Of a stretch of DNA of 64,000 nt, positions 33,215 through 36,340 are shown one piece after another; position 1 is the first letter of the stretch; every line of letters begins with the position of its first letter. The position numbers were made by a program, and so were the translations under genes. The notes beneath the pieces were generated by a model. That model ran no database searches and was not told where the DNA came from. It saw only the letters and a list, made by a program, of their open reading frames with translations. Origin of the DNA: Dehalococcoidia bacterium. Its GTDB lineage: Bacteria > Chloroflexota > Dehalococcoidia > Lucifugimonadales > UBA1123. The DNA is taken from contig OY761144.1 in NCBI GenBank assembly GCA_963664365.1, positions 1,513,596-1,577,595 on the forward strand. Reading direction: 5' to 3'.

Positions 33215-33276
33215 TATATCCACCAACCAACCCCATCCTGAATATCCCCCAATCCCGTAAATCCTGCTTCTACCCC

Positions 33277-33322
33277 TTGACACCAGCCCAAAGACCATGT
33301 ATTCTAAACAGAACTGTCGTAC
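33277..33322 (+). promoter_or_regulatory. promoter TTGACA-17 nt-TATTCT followed by a LexA-like box GAACTGTCGTAC
   Basis: Hexamers at 33277-33282 and 33300-33305. The box at 33311-33322 has one mismatch to GAAC-N4-GTTC. Confidence 0.45.
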
Positions 33323-33358: not shown

Positions 33359-34255
33359 ATGACCACCACAACACAACAGACACCATCTAACCCGGCCCTC
33401 GACTTCGCCAACGCCATCCGCGAGGAAACCGACAACGGTCTCGAACTCATCGAGATCCTACACGACATCGCCCAAGGCAACGACCCGAAGGCCACCGCCA
33501 ACGACCGCATCACTGCCGCCAACATCCTCGCCGACAGAGGATTCGGCAAATGCCCCAGGCAAATCGACCCCAATCCGGCCCCAACCCCCAAATCCGACGC
33601 CAACGACGTAGGGGCGATTCGCGAATCGCCCTCGGTGCCCGCCGCCAACCCCAGGCCCGTAACCCAAATCAAAGACTCCCTAGACCAGGCCCTCGGCCCG
33701 GCCCCAACTACCCACTCGCCACAATCTACTAACCACTATTCACAATCCACCATCCACTTCACCATCCAACAACACATCATCGAAATCACCAACAACGGAC
33801 AGACCATCCGAGACACCCTAAAAGAAATAGCCCGGGCCAAAGACGACCCGAAAGTCACGCCCTACCACCGCGCAAGAGCCGCGCGTATCCTGCTCGACCG
33901 TCTCCTCGGAACCGACAGTGCCCTCGAAAAGAGGACCAAACCCTACGTCCGCCCGGTCAGACACATCGACCCCGACGACCTGGCCGAATTCCGCGCCAAG
34001 CTCCAGCGAATGGAGGACGAGGGCACACTCACACCCTACCCGGACGGTCGCAGAGACAACATAACCGTGCCTGAGATACCCGAATGGTTCGACCCGACCC
34101 CCTACCTGGACGAAGCTTCCGAAAAGTTCGAGGCCGACATCAAGATGCGGCTCGAACGACAGAAGGCATGGCCCGCCATCGAAGAACGAAGGCGGAAGAA
34201 ACTCGCCAAAATCTACCCCTCTCACTCCGAAGACGGCAAACCGCCGGACCCATAA
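33359..34255 (+). CDS. hypothetical protein with an internally duplicated helical motif (...DR(I/A)xAAxILxDRxxG...)
   Basis: 298 aa. The repeats NGLELIEILHDIAQGNDPKATANDRITAANILADRGFGK and NGQTIRDTLKEIARAKDDPKVTPYHRARAARILLDRLLGT are separated by a Pro-rich linker. The motif is reminiscent of small phage DNA-binding or terminase-small-subunit-like proteins. Confidence 0.55.
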   Translation: MTTTTQQTPSNPALDFANAIREETDNGLELIEILHDIAQGNDPKATANDRITAANILADRGFGKCPRQIDPNPAPTPKSDANDVGAIRESPSVPAANPRPVTQIKDSLDQALGPAPTTHSPQSTNHYSQSTIHFTIQQHIIEITNNGQTIRDTLKEIARAKDDPKVTPYHRARAARILLDRLLGTDSALEKRTKPYVRPVRHIDPDDLAEFRAKLQRMEDEGTLTPYPDGRRDNITVPEIPEWFDPTPYLDEASEKFEADIKMRLERQKAWPAIEERRRKKLAKIYPSHSEDGKPPDP

Positions 34256-34702: not shown

Positions 34703-34757
34703 TTGACAAGCGTTCTCTCAATGTGTGAACATGAGTTCACGCGAAGAACGAGAGTTC
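34703..34757 (+). promoter_or_regulatory. promoter -35 TTGACA plus two Gram-positive-type LexA boxes (GAACATGAGTTC and GAACGAGAGTTC)
   Basis: TTGACA at 34703-34708. Perfect GAAC-N4-GTTC palindromes at 34727-34738 and 34746-34757. The SD AGGAGA and the ATG at 34777 follow. Confidence 0.7.
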
Positions 34758-34776
34758 CCGAATTAGGAGAGACAAC

Positions 34777-36123
34777 ATGCTCATCAAGAAATCGCCCGAC
34801 GCCTACGACAAGCTAAGGATACTCGGAGGAATGGCCTCCGACGACATTCTATCGCCCCCCGAAAGGCCCGGCGACCGAGGCGGCCCATATCCCGCCGCCA
34901 AGAAGAATCCCAACTACGGCGTCTATCGAGCCTCCATGCCCAACGGCAAGTTCATAAACCTGATGCGCGTCATGTTCACCGACTTCTGCAAGATGGACTG
35001 CGCCTACTGCCCAAACAGCCACTGGGTCCCTAGAAAGCGATACGCCTTCAAGGTGGACGAACTCGCCCAGACCTTCATGGAACTTCACAGAAGGCAGACC
35101 GTCAGCGGACTGTTCCTCAGTTCGGGCATAGCGGGCGACGGCTCCAAGACCACCGAACGACTCGTCAAGGTCGTGGACGCCATCCGAAACAAGCACGGAT
35201 TCAAGGGATACATCCACATGAAGGTGATGCCCGGCGCGGAGTACCAGTACGTTGAAGCCGCGCACCGACTCGGCACGCGCCTATCGGTCAACATCGAGAC
35301 ACCGACCAAACTCCACATGGACAAGCTCAGCGCCATGAAGGACTTCCAGAAGGACATCCTCGACCCCATGGCGTGGATTCACAAGCTCACCGAGGAGAGC
35401 AGCGGCGGCGCCGTCGGACAGGCCACGCAGCTTGTCGTCGGCGCGGCTGACGAGACCGACCGCGACATCTTCGGACGCATGGACCAACTCTACTCCGAGT
35501 GGAAGCTCAAGCGGGTCTATTACGCGCCCTTCCGCCCCGTCCGGTACACGCCCCTCGAAGAGCATCCCGCGACCCCCATGACAAGGAGCCACAGGCTCTA
35601 CCAGATGGACTGGCTCAAGCGAGTGTACAGGTTCTCGAACGATGAACTCGATCTCGCTTTCGGCGCGGACGACCATCTACCCCTCGACCTCGACCCCAAG
35701 ACCTCCATCGCCGTCGAAAACCTCGACGCCTTCCCAATGGACATAAACGGCGTCTCCTACGAGACGCTGCTCAGAATCCCCGGCGTCGGCCCCAAGTCCG
35801 CGCAGCGAATCGTCCGAAACAGGCGCGCCCACGCCATAGACACCTGGAGAGACCTCCAGACCATGGGCGTCGTCCGAAAGCGAGCATGGCCCTTCATCGC
35901 CTTCCCCGGACACCGACCTCCCAGGGCCAAGCAGCTAAGGCTCGACCTCTTCGGCCAAGACGCCAGAGAGCGCCGACTCGCCCAAGCCCCCGAACCCGCC
36001 GCGCAGACGGCCCCATGCGGCGAAGAAAGATCCTGCGTCGGATGCCCGATGTTCGGTATGCCCGGCCATCCCGGCGACCCCAATGCCGGACTCGGCGCAA
36101 CCCCGTTGCCGCCCGCCGCGTGA
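34777..36123 (+). CDS. putative DNA modification/repair radical SAM protein (TIGR03916-like) with C-terminal helix-hairpin-helix
   Basis: 448 aa. CKMDCAYC (Cx3Cx2C), GLFLSSG, GYIHMKVMPGA, RLSVNIETP, and LLRIPGVGPKSAQRIV. Confidence 0.85.
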   Translation: MLIKKSPDAYDKLRILGGMASDDILSPPERPGDRGGPYPAAKKNPNYGVYRASMPNGKFINLMRVMFTDFCKMDCAYCPNSHWVPRKRYAFKVDELAQTFMELHRRQTVSGLFLSSGIAGDGSKTTERLVKVVDAIRNKHGFKGYIHMKVMPGAEYQYVEAAHRLGTRLSVNIETPTKLHMDKLSAMKDFQKDILDPMAWIHKLTEESSGGAVGQATQLVVGAADETDRDIFGRMDQLYSEWKLKRVYYAPFRPVRYTPLEEHPATPMTRSHRLYQMDWLKRVYRFSNDELDLAFGADDHLPLDLDPKTSIAVENLDAFPMDINGVSYETLLRIPGVGPKSAQRIVRNRRAHAIDTWRDLQTMGVVRKRAWPFIAFPGHRPPRAKQLRLDLFGQDARERRLAQAPEPAAQTAPCGEERSCVGCPMFGMPGHPGDPNAGLGATPLPPAA

Positions 36124-36340
36124 ACTCGACACGCCAACTACCGTCACTCCGGCGAAGAGCCTGCCCCGTACCCGATACGGGGCCGGAGTCCAGAAGGGCA
36201 GGGGGATGGAGGCTCGGCCGCCGCGTGAACTCGACACGCCAACTACCGTCACTCCGGCGAAGAGCCTGCCCCGTACCCGATACGGGGCCGGAGTCCAGAA
36301 GGGCAGGGGGATGGAGGCTCGGCCGCCGCGTGAACTCCGC
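36113..36340 (+). repeat. 105-bp tandem repeat, 2.2 copies, with nested hairpins
   Basis: CGCGTGAAC recurs at 36117, 36222 and 36327. The unit contains ACTCCGGC...GCCGGAGT enclosing CCCCGTA-CCCGA-TACGGGG. Confidence 0.9.

Follow-up and report, generated by a model that had tools for sequence, protein, structure and literature searches.

Locus and promoter architecture

We analysed a window of 64,000 nucleotides (64 kb) of the genome of a Dehalococcoidia bacterium (assembly GCA_963664365.1, contig OY761144.1, positions 1,513,596 to 1,577,595), in which the gene of a radical SAM/helix-hairpin-helix (HhH) protein, here named P0001, is preceded by two palindromes of the form GAAC-N4-GTTC. The bacterium belongs to an uncultivated, SAR202-type lineage represented by a metagenome-assembled genome, which consists of a single contig of 3,396,024 bp with 60.5% G+C. 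The features of the locus are collected in Table 1; coordinates are positions in the window unless they are marked as genome coordinates.

Table 1. Promoter, operator and protein features of the radical SAM/HhH locus
Feature	Position	Strand	Basis or remark
-35 hexamer TTGACA, radical SAM gene promoter	34703..34708	+	read in sequence
Putative extended -10, TGT-GAACAT	34724..34732	+	predicted; hexamer is the left half of box 1
LexA box 1, GAACATGAGTTC, both half-sites perfect	34727..34738	+	read in sequence and pattern search
LexA box 2, GAACGAGAGTTC	34746..34757	+	read in sequence and pattern search
Shine-Dalgarno sequence AGGAG	34766..34770	+	ends 6 nt short of the ATG at 34777
Gene of P0001, 448-aa TIGR03916-like radical SAM/HhH protein	34777..36123	+	translation of the open reading frame, profile matches
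Radical SAM cluster motif C71-x3-C75-x2-C78	34987..35010	+	translation
HhH DNA-binding module, residues 322-354	35740..35838	+	Pfam HHH_3, RecR_HhH, HHH
QLRLDLF, residues 386-392, candidate beta-sliding-clamp-binding motif	35932..35952	+	alignment
C414-x5-C420-x2-C423-x7-H431 tail (APCG..SCxGCPMxGMPGHPG)	36016..36069	+	alignment

An initial annotation, made from the DNA letters, had described two perfect palindromes, flanked by a TTGACA -35 hexamer on one side and by the Shine-Dalgarno sequence of the gene on the other, and had interpreted them as LexA boxes. Their coordinates, sequence and placement agreed with our reading. It had also called the gene product TIGR03916-like, and this wording is apt, as P0001 scored 303.3 bits with the TIGR03916 profile (E 3e-90, profile positions 4-380 of 415; 302.4 bits in a whole-genome search), which is below the cut-off of 343.5 bits, and additionally matched Pfam Radical_SAM (residues 66-204) and HHH_3/HHH (residues 322-354).

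The two boxes, located 19 bp apart (centre to centre), are the sole pair of perfect GAAC-N4-GTTC sites found in the 64 kb by pattern search, and the entire genome holds 29 such sites. Their number in the window is by itself not significant, since shuffled 64-kb sequences contained 1.14 perfect sites on average. Their clustering is significant: with 29 sites, approximately 0.007 pairs separated by 30 bp or less are expected genome-wide (406 pairs x 60/3.4e6), therefore the pair at this promoter cannot be attributed to chance.

The distance between the -35 hexamer and the putative -10 element is 18 nt, and box 2 is predicted to cover approximately positions +6 to +17 of the transcript. The conserved TTGACA-N17/18 arrangement, with a TG one base ahead of GAACAT, suggests an extended -10 promoter geometry, in which the left half of the operator would at the same time serve as the -10 hexamer.

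Conservation of the putative operator at the radical SAM gene

Orthologues of the gene are present in 23 of 24 genomes of the genus and in five other families of the order. We assembled 80 named orthologous Dehalococcoidia/SAR202 loci (65-92% amino acid identity), searched for the box within 100 bp of the start codon and used 3827 windows taken from the same loci as controls. A box with at most one mismatch was found in 72 of the 80 loci, compared with 2.3% of the control windows, and a perfect box in 32, compared with 0.1%.

The promoter context is conserved as well. TTGACA or a near variant occurs in nearly all 80 loci, and the orthologous upstream regions follow the pattern TTGACA, about 17-18 nt, (T)G(A)GAACATATGT(T/A)C. 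The distance from the end of the -35 hexamer to the GAAC of the box is 17-18 nt in 51 of the 70 loci in which it was measured. Within the box, positions G1, A2, A3, T10 and C12 are near-invariant, and the flanks are variable; the T at -3 and the G at -2 of GAAC were each seen in 50 of 73 orthologous boxes.

The closest relative (92% amino acid identity) has an identical box 1. Its box 2, GAACTGGGGTTC, retains both half-sites and differs in the N4 spacer (GAGA in the source genome, TGGG in the relative), which is the pattern expected of a functional second operator, judging by this pairwise comparison.

The operator extends beyond the orthologous set. Among distant Chloroflexota homologues with a locatable start, 11 of 13 carry a box with at most one mismatch, and in 10 of the 13 the box lies in, or overlaps, a recognisable -35/-10 pair, e.g. 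CTTGACAAATAGAACCGATGTTCGTATAAT. In the Firmicute Thermincola ferriacetica the arrangement TTGACG-TG-CGAACGTTTGTTCTG-TATAAT stands ahead of an operon composed of the radical SAM gene and a DUF4130 gene.

LexA and its probable operator at lexA, recA and dinB

The genome encodes a LexA protein approximately 1 kb beyond the end of the window (genome 1578562-1579197; TIGR00498, 182 bits, above the cut-off), and this is the only TIGR00498 match in the source genome. Its translation contains AAGEP at the cleavage region, and GTSM and LKRF as catalytic motifs.

The regions upstream of lexA, recA and dinB were compared across up to 30 genomes of the genus. All 30 lexA promoters consist of TTGACA, G(T/C)ACA(A/T)ATGGTC in the spacer, a -10 element and then AGAACATT(A/C)GT(A/C)C. 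About 25 of 28 recA promoters carry TAGAACAAATGTAT overlapping a TTTACA -35 hexamer, and in most dinB promoters TATAAT is followed by a box (TAGAACnnnTGTTCAAG; TATAAT...TAGAACnnnTGTTC). At lexA and recA the right half-site is often GTAC, GTCC or GTAT. The centre of the genus consensus, (T)AGAAC-ATAT-GTTC(T), is rich in AT. For comparison, the Gram-positive LexA operator of Bacillus subtilis, also known as the Cheo box, is CGAAC-N4-GTTCG, with the same half-sites and spacing as the boxes described here, and the LexA of Dehalococcoides ethenogenes reportedly binds GAAC-N4-GTTC. The operators of the genus differ from the Cheo box in their degenerate right half-site and, at the radical SAM promoter, in apparently doubling as the -10 element.

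A position weight matrix built from the lexA and radical SAM gene sites was scanned over the source genome and recovered lexA, recA, dinB (genome 2921594-2922673), the radical SAM gene, a class II ribonucleotide reductase gene and comEC. The best operators of the regulon in the source genome are those of the radical SAM gene. The occurrence of the motif in the lexA, recA and dinB promoters across the genus upholds the assumption of the initial annotation that GAAC-N4-GTTC is the LexA motif of this organism, and, together with the 72 of 80 orthologous loci, supports its interpretation of the palindromes as LexA boxes.

Based on these observations, we suggest that the two palindromes are very probably operators of the cell's own LexA, and that the radical SAM/HhH gene belongs to the SOS regulon as a stand-alone gene. 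Several observations weigh against this interpretation or against parts of it. The lexA and recA boxes of the source genome, GAACGTTAGTGC and GAACAACAGTCT, are present but imperfect, with 1-2 mismatches. A simple sigma-70 promoter/terminator scan called no promoter at the radical SAM gene, as GAACAT agrees with TATAAT at only 3 of 6 positions, and measured against the consensus this -10 assignment is weak. With the genus matrix, box 2 stays below 8 bits, as its N4 is GAGA and not AT-rich. Two boxes with at most one mismatch occur in 9 of the 80 orthologous loci only, so the doubled operator seems to be a local reinforcement, and since a single box is found in most orthologues, box 2 may add little.

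Three other explanations have to be considered. The first assumes that GAAC...GTTC is maintained chiefly as a -10/discriminator element and that its match to the LexA consensus is incidental. In the SAR202-type clade the left half-site indeed occupies exactly the place of a -10 hexamer, 17-18 nt past TTGACA and with a TG ahead of it, and no alternative -10 is recognisable. However, the right half-site GTTC, which has no role in such a promoter, is as conserved as the left one (G 63, T 72, T 64 and C 69 of 73); in the other Chloroflexota and in Thermincola the palindrome lies in the spacer beside a separate, good TATAAT, and at lexA, recA and dinB it takes other positions relative to the promoter. 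We therefore regard this explanation as improbable.

Slightly less probable still is the binding of the boxes by a different regulator with GAAC/GTTC half-sites, e.g. a second LexA or an XRE-type repressor of a mobile element. Four relatives (G003, G008, G013 and G015) do encode extra LexA-like or LexA-N-terminal-like proteins, and in the source genome a large paralogous family of 298-aa proteins carries similar boxes (see below). On the other hand, TIGR00498 has a single match in the source genome, and in all 30 genomes the motif stands on the promoter of lexA itself, as is classical for an autoregulated gene; it is also present at recA and dinB.

That the palindromes are a chance occurrence devoid of regulatory meaning is effectively refuted, for although 34 of 100 shuffles of the 64 kb reached two or more perfect sites, so close a pair standing on a promoter is not expected, and the box accompanies 90% of the orthologous loci.

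Further candidate members of the regulon

Two of the genes recovered by the matrix scan are possible further members of the SOS regulon. The competence gene comEC/rec2 (genome 2702836-2705310, minus strand) has a recA-type promoter with two boxes, GACCATGTATTC and TAGAACTAATATACAT, and the class II ribonucleotide reductase gene (genome 1249503-1252052, minus strand) has GAGAACAATAATGC 23 bp upstream.

Elsewhere, in the region of genome 1400212-1400332, a perfect 18-bp palindrome, GCGGAACTTAAGTTCCGC, is located directly upstream of a TTGACC -35 hexamer. A second perfect box, GAACTTGAGTTC, lies in the same region inside the start of an open reading frame (ORF) for a P-loop-like protein (…WFGAGKTHTLYYF…). 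Both boxes (genome 1400215 and 1400321) fall within an island of approximately 3 kb with a low coding score, which could represent a gene gained by horizontal transfer that has a LexA-like operator and perhaps serves in defence.

The radical SAM gene lacks the DUF4130 partner

The initial annotation had considered the gene an orphan, because the TIGR03915 (DUF4130/uracil-DNA glycosylase-like) partner expected beside a TIGR03916 gene was not seen in the window. In the paired form of the family, the DUF4130 protein is frequently fused to a uracil-DNA glycosylase. No partner is encoded in the window, just outside it or anywhere else in the genome according to the TIGR03915 and Pfam DUF4130 (PF13566) profiles. 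TIGR03915 had no match in the source genome, and PF13566 had none in 41 genomes (the source genome and 40 relatives). Furthermore, TIGR03915 was not found above its cut-off in any of 301 sampled Chloroflexota genomes, about 45 of which contain a TIGR03916-like gene (3 above the cut-off). The orphan status thus holds for the whole genome, but it is not a local oddity: the partner-free state is the rule for the phylum and not a peculiarity of this locus.

The method detects the partner where it exists, as DUF4130 was found directly downstream of the radical SAM gene (overlapping it or 2 bp away) in the positive controls, i.e. Geobacter, Thermincola and a Woesearchaeota/DPANN-type archaeal contig. 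Two further control genomes are in line with the partner-free state. In Thermus TIGR03916 remained below the cut-off and neither TIGR03915 nor DUF4130 was matched; in Thermotoga TIGR03916 was likewise below the cut-off, TIGR03915 was absent and a weak DUF4130 match did not reach the cut-off.

No other conserved neighbour was found when the flanking ORFs were clustered in 28 and then in 80 orthologous loci, the maximal sharing being 14 of 80. The downstream neighbours in these loci are mostly convergent, and judging by this arrangement the radical SAM gene is predicted to be monocistronic. A split operon, with a uracil-DNA glycosylase (UDG) encoded elsewhere, was considered and rejected, as the sole UDG gene (genome 3291655-3292266) has no box at up to 2 mismatches.

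A few peculiarities were noted in single loci. A gene for a DnaE-like polymerase adjoins the radical SAM gene in 7 of the 80 orthologous loci. In two genomes of the genus (G016 and G022; loci L029, L031/L033 and L138) the gene is broken into two frames, and the broken copy of G016 and dinB are arranged tail-to-tail. In one further genome of the genus (G018) the gene was not found. The split copies and the missing one indicate that the gene is dispensable in some lineages.

The P0001 protein

In an alignment of 30 clade members, C71 and C75 of the cluster motif are invariant, and C78 is kept in at least 90% of the sequences. Relatives of P0001, which stem from metagenome-assembled genomes of Dehalococcoidia, SAR202 and Chloroflexota and thereby place the source organism, are annotated merely as "radical SAM protein" or "predicted DNA-binding helix-hairpin-helix protein". 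A sequence search of the PDB with P0001 matched only the HhH modules of ComEA, RuvA and RecR.

The AlphaFold2 model, built from a shallow alignment of 30 sequences, is poor (predicted local distance difference test score, pLDDT, 62.9; predicted template modelling score, pTM, 0.51). With this model, Foldseek retrieved from the PDB generic partial barrels of radical SAM enzymes (lipoyl synthase, HydE, viperin and anSME). The model thus supports a fold of the radical SAM class, and the matches are uninformative on the substrate. The possibility that P0001 resembles spore photoproduct lyase was dropped, as no match to this enzyme stood out in the Foldseek search.

Behind a variable linker, residues C414, C420, C423 and H431 are invariant in the 30 clade members, and this clade-specific Cys3-His tail is presumed to be a metal-binding motif. 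Of 20 more distant Chloroflexota homologues, 19 lack it and end at, or shortly past, a QLxL[FW]-type region. One distant homologue of the same class has a different Cys-rich tail.

A clamp-type motif near the C-terminus

The bacterial beta-clamp-binding motifs QL[SD]LF and QLxLxL are known from Pol II, Pol IV, UmuC, MutS and Hda, and the archaeal and eukaryotic counterpart is the PCNA-interacting PIP box, Qxx[LIM]xx[FY][FY]. The QLRLDLF segment of P0001 matches the bacterial pattern. All 30 aligned clade members share Q386 and L387, L391 is conserved in at least 90% of them, and QLxLxLF is present in 102 of 119 members of the clade. Most of the distant Chloroflexota homologues end, or nearly end, in Q-L-x-L-[FW] (QLSLW, QLSLF, QLAMF or QLGLF).

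The motif is not confined to this phylum. We examined 119 other bacterial members of the family, from Geobacter, Thermincola, Tissierella, WOR-1, Margulisiibacteriota and Anaerolineae, and found Q[LM]x[LM][FW] within the last 45 residues of 94 of them, and in none of 875 background windows taken from these proteins. The archaeal TIGR03916 members (P0181 and 117 relatives; locus L241) originate from Woesearchaeota, Aenigmatarchaeota, Altiarchaeota and Asgard-type bins. None of the 117 archaeal relatives contains Q[LM]x[LM][FW], and in 98 of them the final 20 residues include Qxx[LIMV]xx[FYW], compared with 14 of 1918 background windows.

The type of motif switches with the domain of life at the same position of the protein, in paired as well as in orphan members, and for this reason we suggest that the TIGR03916/COG4277 family might dock on sliding clamps, a proposal to which we give about the same weight as to its opposite. 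Two points count against it: pattern and position form its whole basis, and the QLRLDLF region is predicted to be helical, with a pLDDT of 50-68 in a poor model. As in known clamp-binding proteins, the motif of the family fits the pattern and is placed at or near the C-terminus; in the SAR202-type clade, by contrast, it is internal, approximately 55 residues from the end, owing to the added Cys3-His tail. In the literature we found no earlier description of a tail motif in TIGR03916/COG4277 proteins or of docking of radical SAM proteins on a clamp or PCNA.

Comparison with known systems

LexA control of this protein family has been described in other phyla. An SOS-regulated COG1573-COG4277 operon, encoding a UDG/DUF4130 protein and a radical SAM protein, is known from Verrucomicrobia, Alphaproteobacteria and Bacteroidetes (Sanchez-Osuna et al. 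2021, PMC8565304). That system and the one described here share the radical SAM/HhH family (COG4277 corresponds to TIGR03916-like), a LexA operator on the promoter and a phylum-wide membership in the regulon. They differ in that the P0001 gene appears monocistronic, with no UDG/DUF4130 gene beside it and DUF4130 nowhere in the genome, in that the only UDG gene of the source genome is devoid of a box, in the extra Cys3-His tail of P0001 and in the operator, which here is of the Gram-positive GAAC-N4-GTTC type.

Canonical TIGR03916 members resemble P0001 in the CX3CX2C core, the C-terminal HhH module and the Q-L-x-L-F-type tail, and that of Thermincola also in the GAAC-N4-GTTC box of its promoter spacer. 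The canonical members that we examined have DUF4130 directly downstream and bear the name of the TIGR03916 equivalog in their sources, whereas P0001 stays below 343.5 bits and is partnerless. DUF4130 has been linked to SplB-like radical SAM enzymes and UDGs in SOS contexts by Aravind's group (PMC3765255), and a 2026 preprint presents a predicted DUF4130-radical SAM complex in which DUF4130 is suggested to act as a substrate-binding guide (10.64898/2026.08.19.745780).

Radical SAM "photolyase" genes of the SplB type (COG1533) also occur in SOS regulons (PMC3323433, PMC7739468). They are similar to the P0001 gene as LexA-controlled genes of radical SAM enzymes presumed to repair DNA lesions directly, but they belong to a different protein family, and P0001 had no match to SplB in profile searches. 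TIGR03916 had no match in B. subtilis, C. glutamicum or L. lactis, hence the Gram-positive "core SOS radical SAM protein" of PMC7739468 is probably a member of another family.

The LexA control of COG4277 in other phyla is therefore already known (PMC8565304), and the type of operator is not new either. New are the partner-free, monocistronic and constant SOS gene of the Chloroflexota, the operator that appears to double as a -10 element, the Cys3-His tail and the family-wide clamp-type tail.

A proposed model of regulation and function

The data show the sites and their conservation, the motif shared by lexA, recA and dinB, and the lack of the partner; what follows on repression and induction, promoter geometry, clamp docking and the substrate is inferred from them. 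In the undamaged cell a LexA dimer on box 1 would cover the -10 region, given that the weak -10 of a TTGACA-N18-TGn-GAACAT promoter would at the same time be the left half-site, GAACAT. A second dimer could occupy box 2, just downstream of the transcription start, and jointly the two would block the binding of RNA polymerase and its escape from the promoter, the latter being the probable contribution of box 2. Upon DNA damage, RecA filaments would stimulate the self-cleavage of LexA (at its Ala-Gly site, with the Ser and Lys motifs), and the presumably monocistronic message of the radical SAM gene would be expressed.

Its product is predicted to be a radical enzyme of the [4Fe-4S]/SAM type whose HhH module binds DNA. 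The QLRLDLF tail might dock on the beta sliding clamp, most likely recruiting P0001 to damaged or stalled replication sites, where it might carry out radical chemistry on a DNA lesion or base. P0001 would do so without the DUF4130/UDG partner of the canonical TIGR03916 family and with the additional, putatively metal-binding Cys3-His tail of its clade.

Extending this to the whole family, we tentatively propose a clamp-tethered radical enzyme, which would use the beta clamp via QLxLF in bacteria and PCNA via Qxx[LIMV]xx[FYW] in archaea, which would be made under SOS control in bacteria and act independently of DUF4130 in the Chloroflexota, and which in the SAR202-type clade might have gained the Cys3-His site in the place of DUF4130. 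We consider this composite proposal a little less probable than not.

The neighbouring repeat family and a tandem repeat

The next ORF upstream of the radical SAM gene (33359-34255, plus strand; promoter at about 33250-33320) encodes a 298-aa protein with no Pfam or NCBIfam match. It belongs to a family with approximately 45 full-length paralogues (50-100% identity) and about 10 more distant ones in the source genome. Among the 40 relatives, members were found in only two other genomes of the genus, with 20 and 16 matches. An identical promoter module, TTGACACCAGCCCAAAGACCATGTATTCTAAACAGAACTGTCGTAC, is common to 19 copies of the family, and a GAAC-N4-GT[AG]C box straight after the -10 element was identified in 25 of 39 copies. 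The family may be LexA-controlled; alternatively, it may be a selfish or mobile element that makes use of a promoter of the SOS type.

The recA promoter of the source genome (genome 2667190-2667290, locus L002), TTGACACCAGCCCAAAGACCATCTATTCTATATGGAACAACAGTCT, is nearly identical to the module of the 298-aa family, and is unlike the recA promoter common to the genus, TAGAACAAATGTATTTACA-N17-TATGCT. Immediately upstream of this recA gene there is a copy of the 298-aa gene. It appears from this resemblance that the recA promoter was either replaced by the repeated module or was its seed.

At the other end of the radical SAM gene, a tandem repeat (36113-36340; 2.2 copies of a unit of about 105 bp) begins inside the last codons and provides the stop codon. 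Every unit contains the hairpin CCCCGTACCCGATACGGGG.

Significance

The regulatory result is confirmatory and largely expected, as it extends the link between LexA and COG4277 to the Chloroflexota, where the radical SAM gene is among the most constant SOS genes. The TIGR03916/COG4277 family, members of which occur in a large part of the prokaryotes, has been included in a gene list of a reconstruction of LUCA, the last universal common ancestor, or of a minimal genome. The partner-free form constitutes a natural minimal version, which must work alone, and therefore offers a handle on a widespread enzyme. The clamp motif, if true, predicts action on clamp-loaded DNA at damaged forks or in repair gaps. 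Either of the two, the minimal version or the clamp site, would narrow the search for the substrate of the enzyme, and the clamp-tether hypothesis is the part most worth a test at the bench.

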